A DNA stretch of 60,682 nt, filler included, from Fonticula-like sp. SCN 57-25 (Eukaryota): the NCBI GenBank assembly GCA_001724245.1. It is 4 parts of 4 records of this genome, joined end to end, with 100 filler letters (N's around TTAATTAATTAA, not from the genome) between each part and the next. Parts side by side here need not be neighbours in the genome. Positions count along the whole stretch, not along the records: positions 30,418 to 45,500 come from MEDX01000144.1; 3 more parts are not named here. One strand, given 5' to 3'. The notes under the pieces were generated by a model. It worked only from the letters and a program-made list of their open reading frames with translations. It made no database searches and had not been told where the DNA came from. The translations under genes were made by a program, and so were the position numbers. Below are positions 1-58,216 of this stretch, piece after piece (the stretch's first letter is position 1; the number at the start of each line of letters is the position of its first letter).

Positions 1-5
1 CCGAC

Positions 6-3000
6 ATGTCTGCATTGGCAAACTATCTTTTTGGGAGGGTTTTCACGTATGACGGCAAGCCTCCGTTGTTTACGAAAACCGAGCCAGTGAAGCTGTTTCC
101 TTTCCTCTCTGCAGCGTCGGTCGATCGCGCTACCTTTGTCAAGCTCGTGTCGTGGGTAGCGGAGAAATCGGCGACCTCAGCCCAAACTATCGCCGAGTGG
201 GCGGAATCGCCTTGGATTTTGCGCCAGGGTGACGATACGACGCTGTACGCGCCGAATTCGCTTTTGCATCTTGTTGCGAACAGCGATCTTGCAGCTGCAT
301 TTGCGCCGATCTACGGGCCCAACATTGAGTTTTCCGCCTCATCGGCTGCTTCCCAAATGCTTCCCCTGCCGTATTACGAGTACTTTGGTTCTGTGTCGCC
401 CACGATAGTCGGCGTGCCTGCATGGTCGGATCTTTCTCTTGTAGACCGCGTTTCAGTTCTGTTGGAATGCTGGCAGGAGAACGCGACCACCTACGACGTG
501 GTTGACAGGCTTGTCAAGGTGCTTGCCAACATGCTAAAGTCGTTTATGTTGGATGAAACATACGCGGACGCCTGTGAAGCAGTGTTCGACTGTCTCGTTG
601 CGAACGCCCTTGTACCCGTCGGCAGCGATCGGACATTGTTGAAGTTTCACGATGGTATCATTCTCCCGCCAGACAATCCCTTTTATCAACATGCCTTATG
701 GGATTATCTATTGAAAACACAGTCCTGCCCCATCGTTCTGTGGACGCGTGGCATGCTTGGCCCTGATATGGACGATCTGTTGCGCCGCGTTTCTGCCAGC
801 TTGAGTAATATTTCGCAGACGCAGCTGCTCACTCTGTGGAACTTTGTTGCAGACAACATTTCTCTGTCGAACGATGCCACAACAGACATCAGCAGCGTCG
901 AGACGTTTATTTGGAGTCTAATCAATGAAGTGTTATCTGAAGACTGCGAAGAGTCGCTCGAGGACATGTGCCTTCCGCTGGGCGGAGAATGGCAGCCACT
1001 CAGCGAACTTTTTGCTTTCGATTCGGCACTGCTGCAATTCGGTGATGCAGAGGCCGAACTGCGGGGCATTTATCGCACGCTGTATTCTGGGACGAATATC
1101 TTTGAGATGATGAGTCACGAGTCTGTGGAGCGCTGCCGCGATGGTATCGCGCGTCTCATTTCAAGTGGCAAGCATGTCTCAACCACGAGCGAGATTCTCA
1201 TCTTTGAAAAGATTCTCGAGTCCCTTTTCGACAGATCGCAGGAGGATGACGCCGATCTGCCCGCGATATCGGCCATCGCTTGGCGACTTTACGCGCATAT
1301 CGCTATCAAGTTTCCTGCAGACACCTGCCGGCTCCTCCGCCGCAGGTTTGGTGATAGCAAGTGGCTTTTCCTTTCCGACCATGTCATTGCGTTTAGCCAC
1401 CTAAAGAATATGGTTCTCGACTCGGATGGAATTCAAAGGGTCGAAAAGTTATTGAAGTCAGAATCTCCGGGTCGCAAGCTGTTTGCTCGCCTACTGACCG
1501 GGCTTCGCCAGTTCAACTTGCCCGACGTTATCGCGAGGCACTGCGAGGGCGAAGATGCTCAGGCGAAAATCACGTCGTTCTTTTCATACAATATCCCTAA
1601 ACGGACGCCTTTTAATGAAGTATGCCGTTCTCTGCTGGATTCCCTGCGGACTAGAATGGCAAAGGACATATTTTCTTTGTCGGACATCGACAAGGAATCG
1701 TGGCCGCTCGCCATTGAGGAGGTGTCATGGTCACTCATCAGGGTCTCCTCTGGCTCGAACGATGCTCCGTTGGAGTTTGTCTATCATGAGCAGATATGGA
1801 TCGAACCGGCAACGGCTGTTTGGATTGACGAGGTTTTGCTCAAGGCCGAGATCACGGGCAAACTCGAGTACTCCGAGGATACTTCCGAGGAGAAGAAGGC
1901 CACAGAGGACAGAAAAATGATTGGCGACGTTCTGAAGGAGGTCATGGCCTTTGTCTGCCCTTCCAATCTGTGGCGAACTGCGCAAAAGTACTCTGTTTCC
2001 TTGGCTACGCTGAAGCCGCTCGAGGCCAAGTCCTCCATCGGTACTTTGTTGGACGTTTTGCGTTTCCTGCGATCGAGCCCTTCTCGTCCATCAGGGCCCG
2101 TTGCCTCTTTGGTGTGGGGAATTGTTGCTGTTCTGGCATATTGTGACAAGTTCCCAAGCAGCAATATCTCTATTGTTCACATGGGATCGTGGCTCGGATT
2201 GCCGGCGCCGCGCTCGGCCTTGTGGATATTTAGCCCGAATGACCTCCCGGACGGCTATGATACTGCTTCCTCTGCATCGACATCGGATGGCTCTGCAGAT
2301 TCCGCACAGTTACGTAGAAAGGAATTTGCGAGGGGCATTCTTTGGCGCGCCTCGAATGAGATCAACTGGGGCGCGTCGGCCTCGAGCGCGGGTCTCTCCC
2401 GCAAGAGCGCATCCAAGGTGGCGAGTGTCTTTGGTATTGCCGAAGGGAAACCTCTTCCCTTGTCGTGCTTTGTTTATGCGCTGCATCTTTTGATGGCGGA
2501 GGCAAACAAGTGGATTTCCAAGATGAAGGCGGACTACCCAAAGGTGCCAGAGGCCGTCCACAGTGACTTTATCTACAATTTGTTTACGTGGCTTGCAACA
2601 AAGGCGGGCAATGAGAAGGTCAAGACTGCGGCTTCACGTAAGGAGGCTGCTCCGCTTCGTTTCCCTACGCTTGGTTGTCGCCGCTTCGTGACTGTTGACC
2701 GTCTTGTTATTCGCTCTGAAGTGGACCATGATGCCGAATTTGAGGAGGCTGACAATCCGGAGCGGTTCATTTTGGGAATCACGACTGGCCATCTGCCGAA
2801 ATTGCTTTCGTCGCTCGGCGCTGTCGCCTTGGACAAGGTCCCTACAGAGGAGCGGCTTATCCTTGAGGGCTCTCCCAGCATTGTTCAATTCGACGATCCC
2901 AGCTGGCCCTCACTCTTCCTCAGTGACCATTTGGCGAGGATTATGCACGCGGTGGCGTCGCCATGGTTCCCCGATGTCGCTCGTGTTGTTGGTTTGTTAA

Positions 3001-4916
3001 AGTCTACCGAGCTCGTTGAGTGCGACGAGCTGCGCCGTGTTGTGACGTACCACGGCATTGGGTCGGCCACGTATGAGGAGTCAAGTCGTCTGCTGCCGTC
3101 AAAGTCGTTCATGTCTGAGTATAGTCATTGGGGACGGCCGTTGCCAAAGGATTTCAATCCTCTTCCTATCGAGTGTTGCGTTACAGAGCCTGGTGACGTT
3201 GCATCCCTACCTTCGAACTCACTTAACAATCGTCTTGTGGTCGTGCGCGACGAAAACGAGTTTGCTGCAGTCATGTGTTTCATGAACAGTGTGCTTGCAT
3301 TGAAGGCGCCGTCGCCGCTGCCGGACAAGTTGGAGACATCGGACAAATTGCTAGCAGATGTAAGGATTGGCACTTTTGTGAAAGAGGCTTGTTCGTGGTT
3401 TGATTTCGCAAGATCCCACAAAGACGCTCCTTTGGACATAATTCAGGAGCAGGTTGACAAGGAGGTTAGGCTAGCATCGGTACTGAATCACCATGCACCA
3501 ACGCCTAAGAAGAAGGCGACGAAAAAAGCGCTAGTAGCAGCGGCTTCGGAAGAACCCCCTGTAGCTCCAGATGGCACGGCTACGTCGCCGCCAACAATTG
3601 CTTCCTCAACGGAGAATACTGATATGTCGCCACCAACGACTGTTTCATCGCCGCCGTCAACGACTGATACCTCGCCGCCAACAACTGAAACGTTGCCTCA
3701 AACGACTGACGCGTCGCTGCCAGATCCCGAGACTTTGAAGCAGCCACAGCAGATGGCAGAGACTGCACAAGCGGTCATCAAAGATGACAGAGGTGAACCC
3801 ATTGGGGCTGCCGAGGGAGCCACCTTGAGGCCGACCGAAGGAGCCGCTGATACGAACACGGGCGCGCATCAGCCGATCCCTGAACCCGACGCCGTTGATT
3901 CGTCTTTACTGGCGCCGTTGCACAATGGAAGCCCAGCAACTGCGTTCGACCCTCAGCGGATTCAGGATATGTATCGGGAGCGTCATAATCAGGGTCCCGT
4001 ACCTCGGCCCCAGCACCAGCACCATCATCATCACCGGTCCCAGCAGCAGCATCAGCCCCAGCAGCAGACCTTTGAGGGCGTTGCCGATGCGATGCATACC
4101 CGGCGCGCACATCAGCTGCCGAGCGGGCAGCAGCGTCCTAATCGAAAGGCACGGAGACACGGCAACGGTTCCGGCGGCGTCTCTCAGCAAGCCTCTCGAT
4201 CGACCCAGAGCGGAGTTGGTGTGCCGTCGTTGGGCGTTGCTGTAGAAGCGTTGTCTTTGGAGGCGTCGCAACGAGCATTGCATGTGCAGCAGCCGGTTGT
4301 CGCGCCTTGGCAGGGCTACAGGAGGGAAGAGCACACCTTTGATGAATTTGAATTGGGCATGTTCAATCGTAGTTCATTTTCGATTGTGGCACCACCCAGC
4401 CTCGCTCCGTCGACTCCCGCGACTTTCCAATTCGGCGCAGCTTCAAACCAGACGCCGACGCCGTTTGTTTTGCATTCCAACCTTGTCAGCGGTCGTCCAC
4501 CAGCCTTCCATATGCCCGAGAGCTCGCATGCGAATGCCGCGTACGCCGCCGGAAGCGATAGTCTAGCGCAGCAAATCGGCGAATGGGGAGAAGATTTTGC
4601 ATTCCAGACAATTCTTCCCAAAATGTTCCCGCAGTCGAAAATAGTAAAGACAGGCGGCTTCGAACACTCGCACGATTGCATTGTTTACTCGCAGAATGGC
4701 CAAGTGGAGTTTATCGTCGAAGTCAAAGTGGCGCAGAGGCGAACCACGTTCGTGTGGTCGGGGGCGCAGATTGACATTGCTCGCACTGAACGTAAAAAGT
4801 ATCTGCTGCTTCTTATCGTCCCTTCATCAGGGCAGGTGATTCCTATTCAGGACCCGTTCGCCTGGGTTGAGTTGGGTCGGCTGAGAATCAGTCACGGTGC
4901 CTTTGAGCTCGCCTAG
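6..4916 (+). CDS. Large intronless protein with C-terminal DUF3883 / NO VEIN C-terminal (PD-(D/E)xK nuclease-like) domain; probably 5'-truncated
   Basis: 1636-aa ORF whose frame is open to the contig edge. The C-terminus QIGEWGEDFAF...HSHD...FIVEVK...FVWSGAQIDIAR...KYLLLLIV fits the DUF3883 pattern (IGxxGE, D, EVK, F.xS, Y.l..V). A Ser/Thr/Pro- and Gln/His-rich linker precedes it. Confidence 0.7.
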   Translation: MSALANYLFGRVFTYDGKPPLFTKTEPVKLFPFLSAASVDRATFVKLVSWVAEKSATSAQTIAEWAESPWILRQGDDTTLYAPNSLLHLVANSDLAAAFAPIYGPNIEFSASSAASQMLPLPYYEYFGSVSPTIVGVPAWSDLSLVDRVSVLLECWQENATTYDVVDRLVKVLANMLKSFMLDETYADACEAVFDCLVANALVPVGSDRTLLKFHDGIILPPDNPFYQHALWDYLLKTQSCPIVLWTRGMLGPDMDDLLRRVSASLSNISQTQLLTLWNFVADNISLSNDATTDISSVETFIWSLINEVLSEDCEESLEDMCLPLGGEWQPLSELFAFDSALLQFGDAEAELRGIYRTLYSGTNIFEMMSHESVERCRDGIARLISSGKHVSTTSEILIFEKILESLFDRSQEDDADLPAISAIAWRLYAHIAIKFPADTCRLLRRRFGDSKWLFLSDHVIAFSHLKNMVLDSDGIQRVEKLLKSESPGRKLFARLLTGLRQFNLPDVIARHCEGEDAQAKITSFFSYNIPKRTPFNEVCRSLLDSLRTRMAKDIFSLSDIDKESWPLAIEEVSWSLIRVSSGSNDAPLEFVYHEQIWIEPATAVWIDEVLLKAEITGKLEYSEDTSEEKKATEDRKMIGDVLKEVMAFVCPSNLWRTAQKYSVSLATLKPLEAKSSIGTLLDVLRFLRSSPSRPSGPVASLVWGIVAVLAYCDKFPSSNISIVHMGSWLGLPAPRSALWIFSPNDLPDGYDTASSASTSDGSADSAQLRRKEFARGILWRASNEINWGASASSAGLSRKSASKVASVFGIAEGKPLPLSCFVYALHLLMAEANKWISKMKADYPKVPEAVHSDFIYNLFTWLATKAGNEKVKTAASRKEAAPLRFPTLGCRRFVTVDRLVIRSEVDHDAEFEEADNPERFILGITTGHLPKLLSSLGAVALDKVPTEERLILEGSPSIVQFDDPSWPSLFLSDHLARIMHAVASPWFPDVARVVGLLKSTELVECDELRRVVTYHGIGSATYEESSRLLPSKSFMSEYSHWGRPLPKDFNPLPIECCVTEPGDVASLPSNSLNNRLVVVRDENEFAAVMCFMNSVLALKAPSPLPDKLETSDKLLADVRIGTFVKEACSWFDFARSHKDAPLDIIQEQVDKEVRLASVLNHHAPTPKKKATKKALVAAASEEPPVAPDGTATSPPTIASSTENTDMSPPTTVSSPPSTTDTSPPTTETLPQTTDASLPDPETLKQPQQMAETAQAVIKDDRGEPIGAAEGATLRPTEGAADTNTGAHQPIPEPDAVDSSLLAPLHNGSPATAFDPQRIQDMYRERHNQGPVPRPQHQHHHHHRSQQQHQPQQQTFEGVADAMHTRRAHQLPSGQQRPNRKARRHGNGSGGVSQQASRSTQSGVGVPSLGVAVEALSLEASQRALHVQQPVVAPWQGYRREEHTFDEFELGMFNRSSFSIVAPPSLAPSTPATFQFGAASNQTPTPFVLHSNLVSGRPPAFHMPESSHANAAYAAGSDSLAQQIGEWGEDFAFQTILPKMFPQSKIVKTGGFEHSHDCIVYSQNGQVEFIVEVKVAQRRTTFVWSGAQIDIARTERKKYLLLLIVPSSGQVIPIQDPFAWVELGRLRISHGAFELA
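3585..3720 (+). repeat. Coding minisatellite (SPPTTxx ~7-aa units) in the disordered linker
   Basis: Repeated tcgccgccaacaac-like units translate as SPPTIA/SPPTTVS/SPPSTTDT/SPPTTET. Confidence 0.6.
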
Positions 4917-15109: not shown

Positions 15110-15209
15110 NNNNNNNNNNNNNNNNNNNNNNNNNNNNNNNNNNNNNNNNNNNNTTAATTAATTAANNNNNNNNNNNNNNNNNNNNNNNNNNNNNNNNNNN
15201 NNNNNNNNN
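15110..15209. other. Artificial contig linker
   Basis: N44-TTAATTAATTAA-N44; stop codons in all frames; identical at three places. Confidence 0.97.
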
Positions 15210-17703: not shown

Positions 17704-19567
17704 CTAATAAGGACGGAACTTGCGGGCGGCGCGCATGCGATCCACCTTTTGCTTGTCCTCTTCAAACTTGCTTCGCAACTCGGCCAGTTCTAATATGAAG
17801 TGTCAGTGGCAGATACAAAAGAAGGCAAGAGTCAAAGTGGACACAGAAACACATTTTGATTCCCGCCAATTTTAGATATGACAATAATCACTTCTGAATC
17901 ACATTGAACAACCTATTACTTTATGATTCACGAACAATTCCCTTATGATTCACATGTAATTGACACATAATTCACATATGATTCACATGTAATTCACATA
18001 TAATTCACATATAATTCCCTCATGATTCCCTTATGATTCCCTTATGATTCACATAGACATTTCCTCCCTTTCATCAACCAATTCCAACAATATCCCTCTA
18101 ATTCACAACAAAGACACTTCTGATTCCCATTATTCCCTTCTGATTCCTTCTGATTCCCATTTTCCCTTTCATTTTCCCTTCCCCTTTCCTTCCCCTCTCG
18201 TACGGTCCCTCTTGGCCTGCCTCACCTGGAACCGATAAAAGTCATTCATCCCCGCCGACGCCGCCTTGGCCTTTCCTTCCAATCTGATATTCCCACCATA
18301 TTCAGTCACGCGTTCGATTCCCGCCGTCCCCCAAAAACCCAAAACGCACTTTTTTAGCGCCTTTTTCGACGCGATTGCGACGCCGGCGTCGGTTGGGCGG
18401 TGCCGCGAGACGAGCGTGAAGCCGTCGTCGTCGGGCTGGGCGGCGCGCGCGCGGGCGGCGAAGCGCTCTTGGTCGAGGCGGCGGTCGTGGGAGGACATGA
18501 AGAGGTCGGCGCGGGAGAGGAGGTCGGCGGCGTCGAGGCGGCGGGATTCGTAGGATTGGAGGTAGCCTGAAGAGGGCGGAAAGTGAGTGAAAAGTGAGTA
18601 AAAAGAGGTAAAAAGTGGTAAAAATGGGTCAAAAATGAAATAAAATCATAAAAAATGAGTCAAAATGTGACAAGAGTCTGTCAAGTATACTGCCAATAAT
18701 ACAGTCAAGTACACTGTCAAATATACTGTCAATTACACTGTCAATTACACTGTCAATTACACTGTCAAATATACAATAAGACACAACAATATACTGTCAA
18801 ATACTCACAATAGAGTAAAAATACTCTGTCAATAATACTATCTACAGTTCACCCTATGATCTTCCCTTCCTTGTCCCCTCTCCGGCATCATCCCGATCAC
18901 GCACGCATGACTGCCCCCCCGCTAATGCTTGAAATGTCGTCCTGCTCGCTCTCGACGAGCGTCCTCTCCTCCTGCCCCCACTGGAGCACGCTCTCGACGC
19001 TCTCCTCCGACGCCATCCCGACGATGGCGAACGCGCCCCTCACCCTGAGCGCGGCGCCATCCGCGCGGCGATGCGCCATTGCGGGATCGCACAGGCCGCC
19101 CAAAAGTGCCCGCGACGCGAGCGAGGCCGGCGGCGCGAGGAAGGTGGCGGCGCGCTCGGCATCGCGCGCGGCATCGCCGAGGACGCCAAAGGTGACATCG
19201 GTGACATGGGAGGGGCCAAAGAGGAGCGTCAGGGATGATGACGAGCAGAGAGCGGGGAGATTCGTCACGAAAAGAGCGGCCTGGGAAGCAAGAGTGAGAA
19301 AAGAGGGGAAAGAGCGTGATGACGTACGGCCGGGGAAGGCGCATCGGCGGTCGACTTTGACTGATGCCGCCGAACGTAGAGGGGATGCGTGCCGGATCCC
19401 GCGAGGGCAGTGCGAACGGGAACGACCATGTACCCGCCAATGCGATCAAGCGGCGACCGCGTGGGAGCCTTCTTGGGAGTGGCCTGAGCCTTCTTGGGCG
19501 TCTGCTGTGCCTTTTTTGAGGGCGTCTTGGACGGCGTGGAAGAGGCGGGGCGCATGGCCGTCGGCAT
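17704..19567 (-). CDS. RRP7: Ribosomal RNA-processing protein 7
   Basis: Motifs HPLYVRRH, SLFVTNLP, PDDDGFTLV, NDFYRFQVRQAK and LAELRSKFEEDKQKVDRMRAARKFRPY*; several introns, two of them expanded with repeats. Confidence 0.92.
17940..18060. repeat. Intronic tandem repeat (attcacat / gattccctt units)
   Basis: Visible ~11-bp units in the last RRP7 intron. Confidence 0.75.
18678..18832. repeat. Intronic 12-bp tandem repeat (actgtcaattac)
   Basis: Multiple near-perfect units in an RRP7 intron. Confidence 0.85.
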
Positions 19568-20087: not shown

Positions 20088-21510
20088 CTATCGTATCCTC
20101 CTCACCGCCGCCTGCGCCTCCTTAATCTGAGCCTTCAGCACCCTCGTCTCCTCCTCCCACCTCCTCCTCCTCTCCTCCGCCTCCCTCGCGATCCTCTTCC
20201 CCTGCTCCGCCAGCCTCAGCTCCCGCTCATGAAGCGCCTTTAACCTCGCCACGGCGCCTTCCCCGACGTCCTCTTTTTCTTCGCGCTCCTGATTGCCGCT
20301 CATCTGCGCCATCGCGGCATCCACAACGGCCCCGATGATCGCCGCCTCCTGATCCTCATCTAGGCCGGGGAGATCGACCGCGGCGTTGACCGACTTTATT
20401 ATTTGCGCGCGAAGGTGAGCGATGCCAGCGGGGGTTTGCTCGGCGGCGGCGGCGGAGAGCGCCATGCGCCAGTCGGGGGGGATCGCGCGATCGACGTGGG
20501 CGCCGATCGAGGAGATGGCGGTGGTGAGGAGGGGGGCAGGGATGAGGCGGAGAATTGGGTCGCGCTCAAGGGTGGTGAGGAGAGACTAGGAAAGGAAAGT
20601 GAGTGAAAAGGGGAGAAAAAGGAGAGAAAAGTAGAGAAAAGTGGAGAAAAGTGACATAAAATGACATAAATGACACAAAATTGACACTTTTTGGTACAAA
20701 ATTGCAATAACCAAAATGACAAAAATTAACCTAAAATGACTCAAATTGACACAAATTGACACAAATTGACACAAAATGGACATATTTTGGTTCAAATAGA
20801 CACAAACTATCCACACACTCCCAGCCCCACTTGCCCCCCCTTGTACGTACATTTCTCTGCTGCGGATCGATGATCATTGACGCGCCCTGCTTCGCCCCCT
20901 TCACGACCACGTCCGCCGCCCTCGCCTTGAGCATCACGTCCGAATTAAAGTACGAAAACAGCGACAGCAGCGCGATCTCAAACAGCACGCCCTCCTGCTC
21001 CTCGTCCAGCAGCGGCAGATCGACCGCGACGTTGATCTCGTGCGCGAGCTTCTTCACAAGCGTGTTGAGGCGCTCGCCGTGCAGCTGATCATTCAGCGCG
21101 CGCTGCACATCCTCGTGATGCGATGACGATACGCCGCGGGAGAGGAACTCGACAGTCGTGTAGAGGCATCGCGCGATGACGAGCTCGGCGACAGAGGGGG
21201 GGAGGAAGGAGAGCGAGATCTTGGAGCTCACGCTGCGAGCGACATCGCTCATCTGCTCGGGCGAGAGGAGAAGAGAGGTGCGAAGGGGGGGGGACTTGGG
21301 GATCAGGCCAATGTCCTCGGGGCGGATCATGCCGGATTCAAAGGCGTACCCGACGCCGGCAGATGTCACGCCGGCGACCGTGGCGAATCGAAAGCGACGC
21401 GCCATGTTAGACATAAGGGAGGGCGTCGTGGGGGTGGAAGAAGATGTCGACGCCGATGCGGTCGTCGACATGGTCCGCGCAAGGCGGCTGGCCAGCACGC
21501 GCAGCATCAT
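20088..21510 (-). CDS. Hypothetical protein, probably mitochondrial, with a repeated VDLPxLDExQE motif and C-terminal coiled coil
   Basis: Arg-rich presequence-like N-terminus; intron 20586-20850 joins the two ORFs in frame; motif occurs twice. Confidence 0.75.
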
Positions 21511-25407: not shown

Positions 25408-26610
25408 ATGTCGGTCGTCGAGTGCGAGGGCAGCAACTATTTCCGCCAGCGCGTTGTGTTTTCTCTTTTGAGTGGCAAGCCGCTAAAAATCAGCAATATC
25501 CGTTCTCTTGAAGACAACCCTGGTCTCCGCGGTGCGTCTCCCATTCTCTCGCATTTGTTGTGTGCTGACCATCGTGTTGCCGTCCTGATCCCCGCAGATC
25601 ATGAGCTTTCCTTTCTCAAGCTGATTGAGTCGATCACGAATGGCACGATTGTCAAGATCAGCTACACTGGCACGACCGTCGCCGTAAAGCCCGGCGTGAT
25701 CATTGGCGGCAAGGTAACGCATGATTGCGGCACCGCTCGCGCCATCGGCTACTACCTCGAGCCCCTCCTGATGCTCGCCCCCTTTTCCAAGAACGGCTTC
25801 ATGCTGACCCTTCTCGGCATCACGAATGACCAGCAGGACGTTTCCGTTGACACGCTCCGCACGGTCGCTCTCCCCCAGCTCGCCAAGTTTGGCGTTGATT
25901 CCGATGTCGAGCTCAAGGTCGAGAAGCGCGGCGCCCCCCCGAATGGCGGCGGCCAGGTCTTTTTCCGCTGCGTCCCCGTGCGCTCGCTCAAGCCGATCAA
26001 CTGCACGGACGACGGCCGCATCAAGCGCATCCGCGGCATCGCCTACTCGACGCGCGTGTCGCCGCAGACCGCCAACGTCGTCATCGAGTCGGCGCGCTCG
26101 CTGCTCAACCACTTTATCCCCGACGTCTTCATCTACACGGACCACTACAAGGGCGCAGAGAGCGGCAGGTCGCCGGGCTACGGCCTCGCGCTCGTCGCGG
26201 AGAGCACGACGGGCGCGCTGCTGTCGGCCGAGAGCTGCGGCATGGGCGGCGAGCCGCCGGCAGAGGCGGGCATCAGGGCCGCCAAGCTGCTCTACGCAGA
26301 GATCGCAAAGGGGGGGTACTGCGACGCGACGCAGCAGCCACTCAACTTGCTTATGATGGCGCTCGGGCCAGAGGACGTTAGCAAGATTAGGTTTGGGAAA
26401 CTGACGCCGTTTTCGTACGAAATTTGATGCTCCAAAAGTCGTGAAAAGTGGGCGCTGACATTATTTTTGTAATATAGGATGCAGTTCCTGAGGGATTTGA
26501 AGACGTTTTTCGGCGTCACGTTCAAGATTCAGACGGACGCAGAGACAAAGACGGTCATTATGACGTGCGTCGGGACAAGCTACATCAACGTCAACAAAAA
26601 GATTACGTAG
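25408..26610 (+). CDS. RCL1: RNA 3'-terminal phosphate cyclase-like protein
   Basis: FRQRVVFSLLSGK, NPGLR|DHE, RAIGYYLEP, KRGAPPNGGG, RIRGIAYSTRVSP, QFLRDLK.FFG; introns 25532-25597 and ~26415-26478. Confidence 0.95.
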
Positions 26611-30317: not shown

Positions 30318-30417
30318 NNNNNNNNNNNNNNNNNNNNNNNNNNNNNNNNNNNNNNNNNNNNTTAATTAATTAANNNNNNNNNNNNNNNNNNNNNNNNNNN
30401 NNNNNNNNNNNNNNNNN
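30318..30417. other. Artificial contig linker
   Basis: N44-TTAATTAATTAA-N44. Confidence 0.97.
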
Positions 30418-32059: not shown

Positions 32060-33236
32060 TGCCGCTGCCGTCGTCGCTGCCAAGACCTCGGCCGTCTTCG
32101 CGTGGAAGGGCGAGACCATCGAGGAGTACTGGTGGTGCACTGAGCGTGCGCTCACCTGGCCCGATGGTGAGGGCCCGGACCTTATTGTTGACGACGGTGG
32201 TGATGCCACCCTCCTCATCCACAAGGGTTTCGAGTTTGAGGTTGCCTTTGCCAAGGACGGCTCGCTCCCCGACCCGGCCACCGTCGCCTCGGACATTGAG
32301 CTCTTCAATGTGTACACTATCATCCGCCGCTCGATCGAGAAGGATGCCAAGCGCTTCCACCGCATGGTCGAGCGCATGATTGGTGTCTCTGAGGAGACCA
32401 CCACCGGTGTCCACCGCCTCAAGGACATGGCCCGCGCTGGCTCGCTCCTCTTCCCCGCCATCAACGTCAACGACTGCGTCACCAAGTCCAAGTTTGACAA
32501 CATCTATGGCTGCCGCCACTCGCTCCCCGACGGCATCATGCGCGCCACCGACGTTATGCTTGCTGGCAAGAAGGTCGTCATCTGCGGCTTTGGTGATGTC
32601 GGCAAGGGCTGCGTCCAGGCCATGAAGGCCGCCGGTGCCTGGGTCATGATCACTGAGATCGACCCGATCTGCGCCCTCCAGGCTTGCATGGACGGCATCC
32701 CCGTCGTCCGCCTCGAGGACGTCATCACCGAGGTTGACATTGTCGTCACGACCACCGGCAACCGCGACATTGTCATGGCCGACCACATGCGCCGCATGAA
32801 GAACAACGCCATCGTCGGCAACATTGGCCACTTTGACAACGAGATTGACATGGCCGGCCTCCTCAACGACAAGACCATTGTCCGCCAGAACATCAAGCCC
32901 CAGGTTGACCGCTTCGTCTTCCCCGACGGCCACGGCGTCATTGTCCTTGCCGAGGGCCGCCTCCTCAACCTCGGCTGCGCCACCGGCCACCCGTCCTTTG
33001 TCATGTCGTGCTCGTTCACCAACCAGGTCCTCGCCCAGATCGAGCTCTGGGCCAACCGCTCGACCGGCAAGTACAAGAAGGATGTCTACCTCCTCCCCAA
33101 GTCCCTCGACGAGAAGGTCGCCCGCCTCCACCTCGGCAAGCTCGGCGCCAAGCTCACTGAGCTCACCCCGACCCAGTCGTCGTACCTCGGCCTCAACCCC
33201 GCCGGCCCCTACAAGCCCGACTCGTACCGCTATTAG
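31744..33236 (+). CDS. AHCY: S-adenosylhomocysteine hydrolase (long-insert type)
   Basis: [57 protein letters not shown]; intron 31771-31826. Confidence 0.98.
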
Positions 33237-35598: not shown

Positions 35599-36551
35599 AC
35601 GGGCGCAGCGGTTTGTCGACGCTGCGCACTACGTGGGCTAGCGACAGGGTGCGGGGCGCGGCGAGGTACAATACTATTAAGTGGGGCGCACGACGGCCGC
35701 GAGCGACGACAGGGGATCGGTCAGGCGAAACGCAGATAGAGACAGACGCACAAAGGAGAAGAGAATGGAATAGAAGGAGCGTCAAAGGGCTAGGCAAGAG
35801 ACGCGCGACAGAGGCAGAGTCTCAATCCTTCGTGACACGTCGACAATCGACAGGCACGTCCGATGGCGTGTGCACACTAGGCAAACAAGCGGTTCAAACG
35901 ACCGGGGTGACACGAATTGCATCCCCCAATTCTGACTTTTGATTGGATGAAAAATCAAATGAAACGCCCCTATTGGTGGATATACACGTGATGGGCTGTT
36001 TTTCCCTCTTATTTACTAAAAGAACCTTTCCTCGCTGAATACTTGGAGAAAGAGGACGAAAGATGTATTACAGTATAATACATGTAGAGACCGCATTGAA
36101 AACGTTTTTAGACTATTAAAAATGTCAAAATTGAGAATTTTGAAAGGAATCGTTCTTTGAAACAGCTCGTACGCTTCATTGAGATGTGTCCTGGTACATT
36201 TACGTGATTTACACATTTTCAATCGAGACTCGAATTTCCCTCGACATTTGCTCGCGATTGAGTCGATCAAGTATGTACGATATATATACGGTAAGATGCG
36301 TCTATTCGAGGTCTATTATGTGGCACACTTTCATTTTCCCATCAAGCCAACTCGGCCGCACATGAACCAAAACGTCTTTGCCCTTTTGGACTCGTCTTTG
36401 CGACCTCTACTGGACACTATTCCGACACAACACAGTATGGAAACTGAACTATTAACTCTATGAGTATATTGTGTAGCGTGCAACTAACCATGTAAAATAA
36501 AGTATTACTAAAAATGCAACAAAAAAATTCCGAAATGCGCTCCAAAACCTC

Positions 36552-38910
36552 TCACGTCAGCGACAAGAGCCACGCTACAACACACATTAGCATCACATTT
36601 CCTCACGCGGCATTTCGCGGCGCACCTTCATAGTCGAGTCGCCCCGTCGGGTCGAGCAGCAAGTCAATCTTGAGCGTATCAAACTCGTCCTTTGAAAGGC
36701 CGTTTCCGTCGCCGAACCACGCCGACACGCGCTTGAGGTCGCTGAGGCGGATGGTGCCGGTGCCAGAGGGGTCCAGCTAGCGGAAGGCGGCGCGGAGAGG
36801 TTTTTCGCCGCTTTGGGGGCTCGAGCGAAGCATCGCTTCAAAGTCGCTGAACGACACTTCGCCTGCAAGAACGCGTAAGTAAGGGAATCAAAGGCAAAAC
36901 AAAACGTATGTATCTTCATGTGTAAATCCAATATTTCATGCTGAATATGCATCCAAATATCAACAAAACCATACATGTATCAACAATGAATGTACACTTT
37001 ATCATACCAAATATCATGTATACACTTGGCTTTCCACAAAAATATACATGTATCTACATCTGAATACCCATGTTTCATACCAATTACCATCTACACCCTC
37101 ATATTACACCATCTATTCCCCATCCCAATATCATTATTAGTAACGCACCCATGATGTTGCGCGCCTTGAGCTCCACCACCAAATCGCGATCCGTCCACGT
37201 GGACCCAAGCCCCCTCAGCAGCGCCTTGAGCGCCTCGCACGTGATCGTCCCAAGGCCCTTTGGGTCCAGCAGCGAAAACGCCTTCTTCAAATCCACTATT
37301 GTCCACGTGGTCAGAAAACAATCATCCACGTGGCGCTCGTACCGGTTGTCTTTTGCGTGGTGGTCGGCACGACGGGGCGCAGCGTGGCGGACGGCGGCCG
37401 CGACGTCCCCGACGGCTTGAGCTTGGGCCGCTCCTCTTCTTCCTCTTCCTTTGCCTCTTTTGTTTCAATGTCAGTGCGCGGCGTGGCGGGCGCCGAAGCG
37501 GCCGACGTCGGCTCTGTCGGCGCGTCATCGTTGCTCTCGTCGTCCGCCTTGCTCACGACAACGACAACTTCGGCTTCCTTGGCGGCGGCGTCGGCGGCTT
37601 CGGCGGCGGCGGCGAGCGCCATCGCGGCGGCCACGGCGGCGGCCTTGGCGGCGCGGTCGTCGTCGGCGGACTTTTCCTCAGCGGCGGCGGCGGCGGCGGC
37701 GGACTCGAGCGCGGCCTTTGTCGCGGCTTCGGCGTCGGCGTCGGCCTTTTCGGGTTCGGCGGGCTTGTCGGCGGGGGGGGCGTGGTTCTGGATGAAGGGG
37801 TGCTCGAGGAGCTGCGCGGCGGTCCAGCGGTCGGCGGGGTTCTTGATAAAGGTCTTGTTCAAAAAGTCGACAAGGTCCTGTGGACGCGATGAGTCAATGT
37901 GGGAAATGCGGGGATAAATATACAACAAAGACATGAATATACACGTATTTTTGATGCAAAACATAAATAAAAAACAAAATAAGACCACAAAAACAAAATA
38001 TGACGTACCTCGGAAGCGCCTTCTGGGTACGGCGGGTGATCGTCCTCGACGATCTTGAAGAGTGCAGTCATCGACCGCTGATCGTGGTACGGCGGCTTGC
38101 CTACAAGACACACACGTTAGCGCGCTTCAACACAAAATAAGCGCGGCGTACCGGTGAGAAGCTCAATGACGGTGCACCCGAGCGACCAAATGTCGGACGC
38201 GATCGTCGCGCCCTCCAGCTGGATGACCTCTGGCGACATCCAAAAGGGCGTCCCGACCACGTCCTGGTTAAACTGCTCCTCGCCGCGGACCGACCGCGAA
38301 ACGCCAAAGTCAGCAAGCTTGATTGTGCCGCTCCTGCGTCGGCGGCGTCGCCAGTGAGAACGCAGAGATCACACACAAGGAGTTGCGCACCTCGTCTTTA
38401 GAATATTGGCGCACTTGATGTCGCAGTGGATCACGTTGCGGGCGTGCAAGTACGCGAGACCCTCGAGCAGCTGGCGCGTGTACTTGCTCGTCGTGGGTTC
38501 GGAGACGGTCGCGTTGTTTTTGAAGAGGCGGGTAAGAGCGCCGTCGTCAACAAACCTGCGACGACCGCCGGTTAGCACGCGGGATAACCATGTATAGTGC
38601 GTACTCGAGAACAATGTTCAGGTGATCGCGCGTCTTGATATATTCGATGTATTTAACAATGTTCTTGTGGGAAAAGTCCTTGAGCAGGTCAATTTCCTTC
38701 TATTCTCACAGAATCACATGGTTAACAACGGGATCGGAGGCATGCGCAACCACGCACCATCACGTTGTCGATCTCGTGGGCCTCCTCGAGCGCAATCTGC
38801 TTGATAGCCACGACCTCGCCATCGGCAAGATTGAGTCCCTTGTAGACAATGCCAAAGGCTCCCTTGCCAAGGCACGCGCCCAGCTGATAACCGCCGATAA
38901 TCACTGGCAT
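36552..38910 (-). CDS. STE-group Cdc15/SepA/MAP3K-epsilon-like kinase fused to a calmodulin-like EF-hand domain; in-frame TAG at 36777-36779
   Basis: Kinase: [59 protein letters not shown]. After an Ala/Glu linker, introns 37296-37342, 36863-37148 and 36575-36625 splice in frame to [16 protein letters not shown]...GEVSFSDF...[15 protein letters not shown]...GRLDYEAWL. Confidence 0.85.
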
Positions 38911-39215
38911 TCGCGCGTGGGGACGAGCGGGCTGCGCTTGCTGCTTCGCTTCAACAAAACAGACCGATGCAGCGATTTGATTGGCTGGCGGTGACCTGTC
39001 ACAGGACTGTGGTCAATTGGAGCATTGTGATTGGATGATGGGGATACAGTGCATGGTTCGGGGAACAAAGCAGCACATCTGTAGCATTTTGATACAGATT
39101 TTGAGCTCGATGTGTCGATAGCGGCCGACAGACGCACATGAAAAAAAGGCAAAAGTAGTGTTTGCATATTAAAAATCACATTTATTATTATTGTACAGAT
39201 GCATCGCAAAGTGGT

Positions 39216-40096: not shown

Positions 40097-40184
40097 TTAC
40101 AATGTTGACGACGGGGGGACGAAAAGCGACCACCCCGAATAGTTTGGGGCAGACTCTCCTTCCGCGCGCCTTTCTGTGTTGAGG

Positions 40185-42113
40185 ATGTCGGGGGGTGGCG
40201 ATGCTGCCGCGCAGTCGGGCGGCGGAGACGCCTCCGATACAAACCCCAAGCTCTTTGTCGGCGGGCTTCACACGGACATTGACACGAACCGGTTGAAAGA
40301 GATCTTTAGCGAATATGGCGACGTCGTGGAGTGTACGCATATATCTCAATCCCCTTGCCTCGGCTCACGCCCGTCCCTGACGTAGCGCGCGTGCTGTGGA
40401 ACCGCGAGACGAACCAGTCACGCGGCTTTGGTTTTGTTACCTTTGCCCATCCGGAGAGCGCCGCTCTCGCGCGCAGGACGCTCAATGGCAAGGTGTGTTT
40501 CCTCTTTATTCCATTTTCCCGCCCATTTTTCGTTTTCCCGCGCATGCTCATGCTGTGCCTCCCAGGATCTGTTGGGCAAGGAAGTGCGCGTCGACTATGC
40601 GGACAATCGCCCGAACCGCGTCCGCGAAGTCCCCGGGCTTCCGCAGCAAGGCTCGATGGGCGGGCATCAAGGGTATCGCGTCCCCTACGGCGTCCCCATG
40701 CCCGGCGGCGCGATGCCTCCCTTTGGGATGGGCGGCGTCCCCCCCGTGATCCAGCCCGGCATGTACTTTGACCCGTACTACGGCTGGACTGCGATGCCCA
40801 TGATGGCTTCCGACGCCGGATACGATTATTATGATAATAATGCTAGCTATGACAGTACTTCAATGCAATATGATTCCACATTTGCTCGTGACAGTCCGTC
40901 CGGCGGCGACAGTCCATCGTCGTCCGCGCCGCGCTCGTCGGCGTCTGCCTCCGCATTGGCGGACGACGACGGCGCAGTCTCGCGCATCCCAATCCCCGTC
41001 GTGCGGCCGTCCCAGGGCATCATCCGCGCCAGCAAACCTCAGCCGAGCAAGGCCCACGACACTGTCTCCGCAGAGGGCGCCAGTGCCGACACGAGGCGCG
41101 AGCGCAGCCCGAGCCGCGAAGGCGACGCGCGCGACAAGGAGCGCAGGAGGGAGCACGACAGCGGCAGGAGCAGAGATAGGGATCGTGATCGTGACAGGGA
41201 TCGTGACAGGGATCGTGACAGGGATCGTGACAGAGATCGCGACAGAGATCGTGACAGAGATCGTGACAGGGATCGTGACAGAGATCGCGACAGAGATCGT
41301 GACAGAGATCGTGACAAAGATCGCGACAGAGATCGTGAAAGGGACAAGGATAGGGAACGTGATAGGGAGAAGGATAGGGAGCGTGAAAAGGAGCGCGAAA
41401 AGGAGCGCGAAAAGGACCGTGAAAAGGATCGTGAAAAGGAGCGCGAAAAAGACAAGGATAGGGATCGTGAAAAGGATCGTGAAAAGGATCGTGAAAAGGA
41501 CAAGGAACGGGACCGTGAAAAGGACAAGGAGAGGGACCGCGAGAGGGACCGCGAGAGGGACAAGGACAGGGATCGTGATCGTGATCGTGATCGTGATCGT
41601 GATCGTGAGAGGAGTAGTCGCGACAGGGACCGTGAGCGCGACAGAGATCGTGAGCGCGAATACAGCCGCGACAAACGTGACAAGGACGACAAACGTGTCA
41701 AGGACGAGAAATATCACAAGGATGAACGTGTCAAGGACGAGAAATATCACAAGGATGACAAGCATCACAAGGACGAGAAATATCACAAGGATGACAAGCA
41801 TCACAAGGACGACAAGCATAACACGGTCGACAAGCATCACAAGGACGACAAGCGCAGTGATAGGCATGAGCGTAGTGATAGGCACGAGCGTAGTGATAGG
41901 CATGAGCGTAGTGATAGGCATGATCGCCATGATGAACGCAGTGAAAAGCATGAATCCCGGTCATCGTCCAGGTCTGATAAAAATGGGTCGTCATCAAAGC
42001 ACGGCGACGGCGAGCAAAAGTCAAAGAGCGGCGAGGCGCTGAAGCGGTCGAGCGGCAGCGTCTCTGAGGAGACAAGCAAGCGGCCGCGCACCGAAGAGGA
42101 CGCGGCTCGCTGA
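40185..42113 (+). CDS. RRM RNA-binding protein with long RD/RE mixed-charge tail
   Basis: RNP2 KLFVGGL and RNP1 RGFGFVTF; two introns; long RD/RE/KD dipeptide tract. Confidence 0.85.
41175..41940 (+). repeat. Coding low-complexity repeats (gatcgtgacagr; HKDDK; SDRHER)
   Basis: Tandem 6/12/18-bp units within the RRM gene. Confidence 0.9.
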
Positions 42114-44434: not shown

Positions 44435-45500
44435 CTACTCGGCGAGGGCATTGATGCGCGCATTGACCAATGAAGCCGACGGGCGATCGGAAGTCTCGGC
44501 CACAAACACCTGGCGCATGATACTCGCGAGCTCAAAGCGGACGCTGTCCTTGGAATCGCCATTCACCTCAAGGAAATGGCCATGAGTCACGTGACTTCCA
44601 ATGTCTTCGTCGGTCATATTCTCCCACGGCATGCGGCGCTCGCACATCTCCCACAACAGCACGCCAAACGAGTACATGTCGCTTTCCATATCTTCTTCAA
44701 CAGGCCAGAACGTGTAACGATGGGCCACGTGGTCAAACACGAGAGGCGACGCGTAGCGCATGTCACGTGTCATCCTGAGCGTCGAGATGTCGTCCTCGGC
44801 GGAGCGCGATGCGTTAAAGCCGCTGATAATGGGGGTCAGGAACTTGGAGTCGCCCGACGGGGCCTGAAGCAGAATGTTGGACGACCGCAGGTCGCGATGG
44901 GCCACGTGGAGAGAGTGGAAAGCAACGAGGCCAGACGAAATGCCGGCGGCGAGGTGATGCAGCTGGGCAGACGACAGCGGCGATTGGTCGCCCTCGTTGT
45001 GCAGGAACGACGCCAGGTCAGTCTCGTAGCGGCGCGTAATGATGGCGCGCGGCTCGTCAGTGTACGCGACGAGGCTGATCACGTTCGGGTGGAACGACAG
45101 CGACCACATGAGCGCCACTTCCGTGTGGAAGCGCTCAGTGTTCACTTCTTCAGAGACGGCGGGGTTCGGGACATACTTTTTCACCACAACACTGCTCGTG
45201 CCAGTACGCTGCGAAAGCGTCACGTCGAGCAGCGTGGCGGCGAACGCGCGGCTGCCGGGGAGACGAGCGCCGGGGCGCACCGACGAGTTGTAGTCGGCGC
45301 GCAGGAAACCGGGAAGGGCAATCTCGAGCGCAGTGTTCACGACGGTTCGGTGAGCATCTTGCAGATGGATCGTCGTGCTGCTCGCGTGGCTCATGCTCGA
45401 GCGAGACTGCACGAGGGCCTTGTTGTACATCTGGAGCGACTCTAGCGATTCAACGCCGCCGTACTTTTCAAAGATCTTTTCCGAGCGCGTCTGGCGGCGT
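44435..45500 (-). CDS. Tyrosine-kinase-like (TKL) domain, probable pseudokinase; 5'-truncated
   Basis: FHTEVALMWSLSFHPNVISLV, HRDLRSSNILL, SDMYSFGVLLWE, RPSA; DFG replaced by GFN; frame open to the contig edge. Confidence 0.8.
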
Positions 45501-45600
45501 NNNNNNNNNNNNNNNNNNNNNNNNNNNNNNNNNNNNNNNNNNNNTTAATTAATTAANNNNNNNNNNNNNNNNNNNNNNNNNNNNNNNNNNNNNNNNNNNN
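45501..45600. other. Artificial contig linker
   Basis: N44-TTAATTAATTAA-N44. Confidence 0.97.
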
Positions 45601-53512: not shown

Positions 53513-55986
53513 ATGCCGGTGACCGACGAGATGCGCGAGACGCAGATGCGAAGGGTGCGGCATCGAAAGCGCACTTGTCTTTGCTGACGCGCGGTAGTAC
53601 GCGGACTCGCGGGATCCTCGGCATCTGTTTACGCGGCTGGAAGTGTGCGGCCGCGGCTCTTACGGCGTCGTCTTCAAAGCGTGCGTTCATGTGATCGTCT
53701 GTCATTGTGCCAACATGCGCGTTTCAGAATCGACAATTCGAATGGCAACACGGTTGCCCTCAAGGTAATTGACTTTGACAAGGTGGACGATGATCTCGCC
53801 GAGCTTCAGCGCGAGGTGATGATCCTCGCGTTGTGCCACCACCCATGCGTCACGCAGTACTTTGGCTCCTTTGTGCGCCGCTCCGAGCTGTGGATTTCGA
53901 TGGAGTACCTCGGCGGCGGATCTGTCGCCGACCTCGTGCGCCTCTTTTATATGTAATTTTCTTTGTTAACCTCGTGCGCAGCTCAAGCCGGGCCCCTTTG
54001 AGGAGCGCTACCAGCGCGTGATCCTGCGCGATGTCCTTCGCGCCCTTGAATACCTCCACTCTCAGGACCTGATGCACCGCGACATCAAGGGCTCGAATGT
54101 TCTTCTTTCCGAAAACGGCCACGCCAAGCTGGCCGACCTCGGCGTTGCGCGCCGCCTCAACGCCGCGCTCGACGCCGTCGGCGCGCGCCGGACGATGGTC
54201 GGCACCCCGCTGATGATGGCGCCCGAGATGATCTCTGGCGATCTTTACGGCCTCGAAGTGGACATTTGGGCGCTCGGCTGCACCGCCTACGAGGTCGCCA
54301 CCGGCCTCCCGCCCAACGCCGGCCTGCCCATGAACCAGGCGATGCTCCGGACCTACCGCGACGACGTACGCAGTGTGATTGGCTGATGGTTCCAAACTGA
54401 CCAATGGCGTACAGGCACCGCGTCTTGTGGGCGAGTCGTACAGCGCCGATCTCCGCGACTTTGTCGAGCGCTGCCTCCAAAAAGACCCGTCTCAGCGCTG
54501 GTCTGCGGCTCGTCTTTTGACGCATCCGTTCGTGCAGGTCGAAGATGACGCAAGCATCTTGCGCGATCTTGTTGTCCGCTACGACGCGTGGCGCGCGACG
54601 CACCCCTCGACCACCTCAAAGGCGCGTGTTTCGGCGCGCGCGTCGGCCTTTGCCCCCGAAGACGACCCGCACGCGCTGCTCGTCGCGGCTTCGCAGGCAG
54701 CGCTGAACGACTGGAACTTTACCGTCGAAACTGACGTCTTTTTCGACGCGCTGAACCGCCACGGCATTGCCTACTTGCACCCGCAGCTGGCGGCCGCCGG
54801 CTTTGACCTGACGCTGTGCTCGTACCTTGACGCGTCGTCGATTGACAAGCTCGGCATCTCGGACGAGCGCGAAGTGGCAAAGCTGCTGGCATTGGTTGAA
54901 GAGCTTCAGGCCGCCGACGATGACGGCGAGGACGACCGCAGTGACTCTGTTGCCACTGAAATCGATGAAAAGGAAGTTGAAAAGGAGGTTGAAAAGGCGG
55001 TTGAGAAAGAGATTGAAAAGGAGATTGAAAAGGAGGTTGGCGCTGAAAAGGTCGAAACGGCCGAAAAGGCGGCTGAAAAGGGCGATACGGAAGCCGAAAT
55101 TGCCGCCAAGATCGATATTGTCGATAATGACGTCATCCCCGCCGTGTCGCTGCCGACCGAATCACCTGCCGTTTCTTCTCCCGCGACAGACAAGAAGCGC
55201 TCCAAGTCATCGGCACCTTCTCTTATGCCCCCGCCCCTCAAGAAAAGCGAAGGCAAACGTTCCAAGCGACTTGCCTTTATGGGCAAAAAGAAGCGAACCG
55301 CACTCGAGTCGTCACGTGTCGACTTTGCCGCCGAAGCCGCCGCCGTCAACATTGCCGCTCAAATGGAACGTTCCAAAACGCAACTTTCGCTTTTCCTCCC
55401 TCGCCAGGGCTCTGTCATGCAACTCACGCCCACGTCATCATCGCCGCCCGCGTCGGCCGACATTGAAGCTCGCCTCAATACATTCGCAGTGCGCGACAAC
55501 AAGCACGGCTGGCGAAAGAAGGCGCAGCAGCCGGCCCAGTCTGGGGTGGAATCGCCCCTTGGAAGCAGTGACTTGCGGTCTGGGAGCCGCGCGAGCCGTC
55601 GTTCGGGGACGCCCGGCGAGACGCCGCCGCCCGACACGCCGCTGCGCCACTCAACAAGTGTCTCAACGTCGCTAGCGGCACAGGCGGCGGAAGAGACGAA
55701 AAAGGGACACCGCGCGTCAAACTCGCTCGGGTCGCAGGCGGCTGGGTCGCCGCGGCGGTCGAAAAAGTTGAATGGCAAGGCGGCGGCGGCGGCGTCGGAA
55801 GAGACAGAGGCCGCGGCGGACGCTGACGTGGAGCCGCCGAGTGGGCCGCGGCCGAGGTCGGCGAGCCTTTCGAGTGCGCAGCCGAGCGTGGCGGCGTCGC
55901 CGGATACGCCAAAGAAAAAGGGCGGTATTGCGGGTGTGTTTCATACGCTGCACCGCAAGCTGACGGTTAAGCCGGGCGCGGCATGA
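53513..55986 (+). CDS. STE20/GCK-family kinase with SAM domain and disordered tail
   Basis: GRGSYGVVFKA|, VALKVID, LWISMEYLGGGSV.DL, HRDIKGSNVLL, KLADLG, TMVGTP.MMAPE; SAM-like segment at ~54720-54910; three introns. Confidence 0.85.
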
Positions 55987-56411: not shown

Positions 56412-58216
56412 TCATCGTACGTCGTCAGGCTCGACCATCTCGCCCTGCCCGTCCTGCTTCTTTTGCAACCCCGAGACGATGTCGTCGACACGGAGGAGGA
56501 GGCACGCAGCCTCGACGGCGGTCTTGAAAGTCTGGACCTTGACCGAGTAAGGCTCCCAGACGCCGTACGTGGTCATGTCGACGATCTTGCCGCTCTCGCC
56601 GTCGACGCCCCACGTGGTGTTCCCCTGCGCCTGCTTGGCGCGGAGGTCGGTGAGGACGCGGATGGCCGAGCCGCCGCAGTTCTGGATGAGCGTGCGCGGG
56701 ATGATCTCCATGGCGTCGCCGACGGCCTTGTATGGCCGCTGCTCGACGCCCTCAATGGCCTTGGCCTTTTCGGCGAGCGCGACAGCGACGGCCATCTCGG
56801 TGGCGCCGCCGCCCGGCAGGAGCTTGGGCTCAAAGATGACGTTGCGGGCAACGTTCATGGCGTCCTGCAGGTTGCGCTCGATTTCATTCATAATGTCCTT
56901 GGAGGCGCCGCGCAGGAGAAGCGTGCACGCCTTGGGCTCCTTGCACTCGACGAGGAAGCTGTAGTACTCGTCGCCGAGCTTGTCCACGTAAAAGAGGCCG
57001 CACTGCGTGCCGACGTCAGACTCCTTGAGCTCGTCCGTGCGGTTCACGATCGTCGCGCCGGTAGCGCGGGCAATGCGGTTGTTGTCCGTCTTGCGCACAC
57101 GCCGGAGCGCAGTGATGCCGGCCTTCAAAAAGTAGTGCTGAGCAAGATCAGCGAGGCCCTTCTCGGTGATCACAAGATCGGGCTTGAGCGCAATGATGTC
57201 GTCGCAGATGCTCTTGATGTACTCCTCCTCAATCTGCAGCATGCGGTTCCAGTCATCCTCCTTCGAGACCTCGACATTGATCTGAGACTCGCCCTTCTTG
57301 TACTCGAGGGGGCAGTCGAGGAGGATAACACGGGGGTTCTCGATGCGGCGACGCATGCCGGCATGCGTAACATCCTTGTTCAGCATCACACCATCAAGCA
57401 CGCGGCACTCTTCAATCTCACCACCGGGGATCTTCTCCACCTTGGCGTAACGCTTAATGTCAACCTCGCGGCGGCCGTCAACGTTGAGCGACACGGTGCG
57501 AACGGCATCATAAGCGAGATTGCACATGAGGTCGCTCCAGCGGCTCACAAACTTGGTGCCGAGCGACGAGCGAATGATCTTGATCATCTGCTCGCGGCTG
57601 TTCACATCAACGGGGAGGGCAATCTTGTCCATCACCTCAATACCATCCTGCAGCGCCTGGCTGAAAGCGCGGATCACAACAGTCGGGTGAATCTCGCGCT
57701 CAATGTGGGGAAGAGCAACATTGAGCATCTCACCGGCAAGGATGATCACAGACGTGGTGCCGTCGCCGACCTCCTCGTCCTGCGTGCGCGCAAGCTCAAT
57801 CATGGACTTGGCGGCGGGGTGCACGACCTCGCACTCGCGCAGAATCGCATTGCCGTCGTTCGTGAGAACGATGCCGCCCATGGGGTCAAGAAGCATCTTG
57901 AGCATGGCGCGGGGGCCAAGGCAAGTGCGGATCACATCGGCAACGGTCTGGGAAAGAAGGGCGGCATGAGCAAAGAAAGAAAAGGCAAGAAAAGGAGTCA
58001 AAGAGGCCAGAAATAAGGCGAGGAAGGGGGGGAAAGGAAAGGAAAAGGCGACGCACCTTGGCGGCATTGATGTTGTCAAGCTGCGCCTTACGGCCGTGCG
58101 AGCGCTCCGTGTTTTGCTCTAAGGGCAACATATAAGTAAACCAACATACTCGCTCAACAAAAAGCCTCCTGCTAAAGGAAAAGGGACGTACGGAGCACAA
58201 GGACAGGTGCCTGCAT
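56412..58216 (-). CDS. CCT3: T-complex protein 1 subunit gamma
   Basis: MQAPVLVL|..GRKAQ..NINAAK|TVADVIRTCLGPRAMLKML, GDGTTS, EIERNLQDAM, LLRVDDIVSG. Confidence 0.97.

Follow-up and report, generated by a model that had tools for sequence, protein, structure and literature searches.

Functional readthrough of stop codons in fungi and animals, as treated in the portions of two reports drawn on here (PMC4207609, PMC12233894), takes place at UGA-CU or UGA CUA G, with peroxisomal glycolytic isoforms, LDHB, and MDH1 as examples. CU forms the core of an efficient readthrough context in Ustilago maydis and in human cells, there after UGA, and the replacement of UGA by UAG lowered readthrough in U. 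maydis (PMC4207609, in the part cited). As for a changed nuclear code, the aphelid Amoeboaphelidium protococcarum, from a lineage near the fungal base, is reported to read UAR as Gln (PMC5304391, in the passage cited). The CDPKs of plants and alveolates carry a kinase and a four-EF-hand calmodulin-like domain in one polypeptide, with a short junction between them. Their kinase domains belong to the calmodulin-dependent kinase group.

The gene described here encodes a protein kinase, an Ala/Glu-rich low-complexity linker, and four EF-hands, and it recalls each of these systems in some respect. As in functional readthrough, the stop is followed by CU and, further on, by a stretch of recognisable function. 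It is, however, UAG rather than UGA and unconserved in relatives, and what looks like an "extension" is no appended signal but the regular C-terminal half of a domain (compared with the same portions of PMC4207609 and PMC12233894). As in the Amoeboaphelidium code, the lineage lies near the fungal base, and a relative has Gln at the site; in contrast, TAG and TAA both end well-supported genes here, and for this reason a UAR-to-Gln code does not fit. The closest likeness is to an ordinary nonsense polymorphism or a consensus base error: a single-base change from the sense codon of all other samples, placed inside a conserved domain, followed by an intact downstream frame, and lacking a conserved signal. 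Nothing sets the TAG at codon 485 apart from such cases.

A nine-exon kinase gene with four EF-hands

The window, that is, the whole stretch of 60,682 nucleotides that was analysed, consists of four artificially joined pieces (15109, 15108, 15083, and 15082 bases), probably contigs of nearly the same length taken from a sorted list. Gene order across the spacers is meaningless, which bears on any linkage claim across the window. Tetranucleotide profiles of the pieces correlate with each other at r 0.77-0.95, which is compatible with, though not proof of, a single organism as their origin. The kinase/EF-hand gene shares the third piece with AHCY and a sulfate permease, while RRP7 and RCL1 lie in the second piece and CCT-gamma in the fourth. 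The best named matches of CCT-gamma reach only 70-77% identity and are scattered over Basidiobolus, Mortierellomycetes, chytrids, Glomeromycota, and Fonticula; since they are both low and scattered, the organism appears to represent an as yet unsequenced lineage close to the fungal base. The features are as follows.

15110-15209, 30318-30417, and 45501-45600: spacers, each made of 44 N, TTAATTAATTAA (stop in all six frames), and 44 N
56415-58118, minus strand: CCT-gamma, single exon, TCP-1 profile 1-487/490
36552..38910, minus strand: kinase/EF-hand gene, nine exons, with colinear Pkinase and EF-hand matches and GT..AG at eight of eight introns
38009..38910, minus strand: exons 1-5, the kinase domain except for the end of its profile, which falls in the first part of exon 6
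38910-38758, minus strand: exon 1 of the gene model
38699-38605, minus strand: exon 2 of the gene model
38555-38391, minus strand: exon 3 of the gene model, Pkinase piece above the curated cut-off
38333-38152, minus strand: exon 4 of the gene model, Pkinase piece above the curated cut-off
38100-38009, minus strand: exon 5 of the gene model, 30 aa
37877-37343, minus strand: exon 6, end of the kinase domain and an Ala/Glu/Lys-rich low-complexity linker of ~150 residues
37295-37149, minus strand: exon 7, EF-hand 1 followed by the front half of EF-hand 2, which is degenerate
36862-36626, minus strand: exon 8, remainder of EF-hand 2, EF-hand 3 (with the TAG), and most of EF-hand 4
36777..36779, minus strand: in-frame TAG, codon 485, AAG (Lys) in four other runs
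36625-36575, minus strand: intron 8 of the gene model, 51 nt, GTGCGC...GCTAAT...TAG
36574-36552, minus strand: exon 9, the final seven codons and TGA

The spliced frame runs through 484 codons, the TAG, and 57 further codons to a TGA at 36554-36552, a length of 542 codons with the TAG taken as sense, and the intron donors are uniform in style (GTGCG or GTACG). Five exon pieces match the Pfam Pkinase profile colinearly at positions 1-40, 47-77, 80-130, 135-192, and 236-263, and thus place the product in the protein kinase superfamily across positions 1-263. Exons 3 and 4 score 49.4 and 63.9 bits, respectively, against a cut-off of 31.7, and exon 5 (30 aa) gave no Pfam Pkinase match. The DFG, VAIK, and glycine-loop motifs are present, and the catalytic loop reads HCD (exon 3, 38391-38555, minus strand), where most active kinases have HRD. 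Exon 7 yields a single EF-hand match (EF-hand_6, E 1.3e-4), which alone is below the curated cut-off. Exon 8, with the TAG entered as X, matches the EF-hand pair profile EF-hand_7 over residues 20-78 with 34.6 bits (cut-off 30), and calmodulin residues 64-139 align with it at an E of about 1e-6. By eye, EF-hands 2 and 4 appear degenerate. Upstream of exon 7 there is no start codon from which the EF-hand exons could be translated separately, and we infer that they must be joined by splicing to the kinase exons.

The combination of a STE-like kinase with a C-terminal calmodulin-like domain in one polypeptide recalls the layout of a CDPK. The nearest solved relatives of exon 4 are STE20-family kinases (STK4, STK3, STK24, and MST4), followed by MAP3K2, NEK, PAK, and MAP4K1, and not the calmodulin-dependent kinase group, an assignment made on this one 60-residue exon. 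The linker of ~150 low-complexity residues takes the place of the short junction, and the degenerate look of EF-hands 2 and 4 by eye is a further difference. Because both the kinase group and the junction differ, the gene does not belong to the CDPK family; the one CDPK-like match among the representative proteins described below (P0091) is a weak EF-hand match only (E 9.6e-4).

The Ala-rich linker of exon 6 is encoded by GCC/GCG repeats at 37531-37704, which draw contigs of unrelated organisms with a depth of up to 465 and many loose ends, and the differences listed there at 37560, 37615, and 37626 are untrustworthy. Intron 7 (36863-37148, minus strand) is 286 nt long, AT-rich (34% G+C), and contains short imperfect repeats. 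Repeats such as gaatcataagg and gtgaattatat occur in the long AT-rich introns, namely this one and the last intron of RRP7 (17900-18200, minus strand), whereas introns elsewhere are 47-58 nt long and GC-rich. On the opposite strand, beginning about 1.2 kb beyond the kinase start codon, an RRM protein gene (40143-42113, plus strand) continues into a long tail of Asp-Arg and Glu-Lys dipeptide repeats (DRDRDR..., EREK...). At the start of the window, an open frame of 1637 codons (3-4916, plus strand) runs off the window and ends in TAG, with no Pfam family at E <= 1e-5.

Codon 485 in other samples and in relatives

The minus strand around the stop reads ...CTC CGC GCC GCC TTC CGC TAG CTG GAC CCC.... 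The TAG is residue 28 of the exon 8 piece and falls within the second EF-hand pair, where it belongs to the entering helix of EF-hand 3 and precedes the first residue of the calcium-binding loop by two residues. Much of what the preliminary description had reported is thereby borne out: the TAG lies in frame inside EF-hand 3 by the sequence, the nine-exon model, and the EF-hand_7 match; the frame after it stays open and encodes the C-lobe EF-hand pair, again by the EF-hand_7 match; the 51-nt intron at 36575-36625 is intact in the gene model; and the context is TAG-CTG.

Logan contigs of four other metagenome runs (X2, X3, X5, and X6, from four study codes) were mapped on 36400-39000. At plus-strand position 36779, where the window has A, all four runs have T, each in one covering contig of low word depth (3.59, 2.2, 2.2, and 4.7), so the codon on the coding strand is AAG (Lys) and not TAG. 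The site contigs of X3 and X6 are 151 nt each and differ from the window solely in the letter at codon 485, which in X3 lies 16 letters from the contig end. A further run, X4, from the study of the probable source, is of the same size and share as X5, so that these two could be a single data set; X3 and X6 agree in year and label and could come from a single campaign. The number of independent sources behind the four runs may thus be smaller than four, namely two or three. The T common to them is not an error of those runs. Between-strain differences amount to ~1 site in 1000 in the covered exons, and the part after the TAG (36552-36776) is without any difference from the window in the four runs; in X2 the contig shows no difference in intron 8 or the 3' flank either, so the identity is uninformative on selection. 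The more diverged strain in X2 also bears on the gene model: 29 of its 38 listed substitutions fall within introns 1, 4, 5, 6, and 7, as do all four indels outside a high-depth contig over the low-complexity linker that is taken to be foreign, and the six differences in kinase-domain exons are all synonymous. The exon boundaries are supported by this pattern.

Run X5 carries two more differences within 76 nt of the TAG, at plus-strand positions 36835 and 36854. Both are non-synonymous changes in EF-hand 2 (A466E and S460P, respectively) on one contig of depth 2.2, and they may be contig errors.

When exon 8 was searched with HMMER against the full set of 1.84 billion representative proteins, 92 matches resulted, and four of them, all metagenomic, are evident orthologues of the exon (P0002, P0017, P0029, and P0040). 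The residue at the site of the TAG is Q in P0002, which has 71% identity, and A in the other three, and none of the four exon-8 orthologues has a stop there. P0002 is identical to the gene at 16 of 27 residues upstream of the site and at 39 of 50 downstream, so that in this comparison the constraint after the TAG is at least that before it. The EF-hand pair after the TAG is, by this measure of sequence conservation, ordinary constrained coding sequence. All four relatives are short ORF fragments, and full-length orthologues with both the kinase and the EF-hands were not found among them or elsewhere in the search. Their ORFs all read ...YEG and then diverge, presumably because each ORF reads into a G|GT donor, a pattern that is consistent with an intron at the position of intron 8 in all four.

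Other searches contributed little. In two separate homologue searches with exon 8, longer proteins gave 131 candidates with none at E <= 0.001, and proteins of near length gave no candidate; given the existence of the 71% relative P0002, both results are uninformative. Among the runs found to contain 36400-39000, none was an RNA run. A search of metagenome contigs, which did not recover the window's own contig, confirmed one of 340 pattern matches. This locus (L001) was rejected, as only a short ...NGNGLSKEEFDTLK... stretch is common to both, in an unrelated frame.

TAG as a stop codon in this organism

AHCY lies in the same ~15 kb piece as the kinase gene; its open frame can be aligned to the AdoHcyase profile as far as 299/299 and has a TAG at 33234-33236 as its stop. 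In RRP7, the final exon (17787-17707, minus strand) corresponds to profile positions 94-120/120, and TAG comes directly after it at 17706-17704. RCL1 probably ends in TAG as well, at 26608-26610, judged from the open frame and splice sites of a last exon that is without Pfam support. The other two stops are in use as well, TAA in the RPS11 and AMP-binding genes and TGA in CCT-gamma and RFC1. In this organism, TAG serves as an ordinary stop. The statement in the preliminary description that TAG ends AHCY, RRP7, and RCL1 thus holds through the profile ends of the first two and is only probable for the third, and its view that a global change of the code is unlikely is supported by the TAG of AHCY and RRP7.

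Of the 119 TAG sites flanked on either side by 25 open codons, none was convincing as a second in-frame TAG, by a codon-usage score that is weak (the 10th percentile of true coding windows lies below zero) and makes this moderate evidence only. A GC3-based scan for in-frame stops is a weak discriminator too and likewise counts as moderate evidence. The best candidate among the 119 sites, at 20586-20588 (minus strand), was set aside, its upstream side being pyrimidine-rich and intron-like. No tRNA genes were found in the window, which is uninformative on TAG decoding.

Origin of the in-frame TAG

We consider it probable, with moderate confidence, that the TAG is a real nonsense allele, produced from AAG by one change that is private to the source sample. 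Codon 485 would normally be AAG (Lys), and one A-to-T change on the coding strand, carried by one strain or on one haplotype, would have turned it into TAG. A protein made from this allele would stop at 484 residues and lack EF-hands 3 and 4. A premature stop well before the last exon junction leads, as a general rule, to nonsense-mediated decay, and the stop here lies 151 nt upstream of that junction, so the mRNA would probably be a target. A recoding mechanism would not be involved; the downstream frame would be normal coding sequence, interrupted too recently for decay of the frame. The preliminary description had put a recent CAG>TAG mutation or an assembly error on a par with readthrough. 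The recent mutation or error is supported, while the ancestral codon is not the proposed one: it is AAG (Lys) in the closest strains, and not CAG.

The main competitor, which we regard as possible but distinctly less probable, is that the source assembly is wrong at this letter, through base calling or consensus, in which case the organism of the sample has AAG and a full-length protein. The letter is unlike that of four of four other runs whose contigs are otherwise identical or nearly so, a nonsense codon inside a conserved domain is the sort of difference that selection purges and errors do not, and the source run is small (437 million letters), so that coverage of the eukaryote may be low. 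Against an error stands the Logan assembly of the probable source run X1, a bioreactor metagenome: of 273 31-letter words sampled from 36400-39000, this separate assembly contains a share of 1.00; the share is rounded, such that one missing sampled word would still give 1.00, and about three sampled words are expected over any one base. It suggests that some reads carry the letter, and the TAG would then probably be in the X1 reads rather than one assembler's slip, though the word share is suggestive only. Real single-base differences between samples also occur in the kinase gene, and at ~1 in 1000 such differences are to be expected. On account of the word share and of this rate, we lean towards a real allele over a base error. 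Readings in which the stop is bypassed are far less probable than either. By arithmetic alone, skipping of exon 8 would keep the frame, since its 237 nt are divisible by three and exon 7, like exon 8, ends in phase 1; but half of EF-hand 2 would go with it, together with EF-hand 3 in full and most of EF-hand 4, so that nothing would be rescued, and no such joints are seen in the DNA contigs of the four runs; an alternative acceptor made from the codon's own AG gives, by eye, a frame closed by a stop. We hold a bypass by splicing to be very improbable. Decoding of TAG as sense, for example as Gln, with the gene intact, has least of all to recommend it and is next to negligible in our judgement. 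P0002 has Q at exactly the codon-485 site, CCT-gamma places the organism among deep-branching fungi or their relatives, and one deep-branching lineage, Amoeboaphelidium protococcarum, is reported to have UAR as Gln (PMC5304391, in the passage cited). However, AHCY and RRP7 end in TAG exactly at the ends of their Pfam profiles, the TAA of the RPS11 and AMP-binding genes excludes UAR reassignment, and the 119-site scan, as moderate evidence, points to no in-frame TAG in other conserved genes, so that neither mark of a nuclear reassignment is seen here.

Readthrough of UAG-CUG, either programmed or leaky to some use, would yield a short form with two EF-hands and a long form with four, as the preliminary description had proposed. 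Past the TAG, the frame remains open through a recognisable EF-hand pair, and CU comes directly after the stop. Yet the stop is not conserved, with AAG in four of four near-identical samples and Q, A, A, and A in the relatives, and normal coding sequence fully accounts for the open downstream frame. This outcome of the check on orthologues that the preliminary description had called for, namely a sense codon at the site, refutes a readthrough switch. Functional readthrough goes with a conserved stop, and here the four runs and the four relatives all have a sense codon; the leaky contexts are UGA with CU or CUA G, and here the context is UAG CUG, in which CU is present; constraint downstream is seen (39 of 50 residues identical to P0002) and is equally expected of ordinary coding sequence. 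The TAG-CTG context gives no positive support for readthrough. Since no relative has the stop, a programmed mechanism is left with nothing to account for, and we consider this reading quite improbable. No better placed, and likewise improbable, is a mixed case: a real allele in a natural strain of an uncultured deep-branching fungus, in which basal near-cognate decoding of UAG-CU lets a few ribosomes pass, so that mostly a two-EF-hand kinase and little of the four-EF-hand form would be made. If true, this would be a hypomorph that arose by accident in one strain and was caught early, with the downstream frame not yet decayed.

With a private nonsense allele as the preferred reading, one candidate for programmed readthrough is removed, which in itself matters little. 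Where sister samples lack a stop, an open frame that encodes a domain behind it does not amount to evidence for recoding. A by-product of the analysis is a clean nine-exon model for a kinase with a C-terminal calmodulin-like domain from a lineage that appears to be unsequenced and near the fungal base. Further protein kinase genes lie in the window at 53588-54383 (plus strand) and 44438-45499 (minus strand), the latter cut by the end of its piece.
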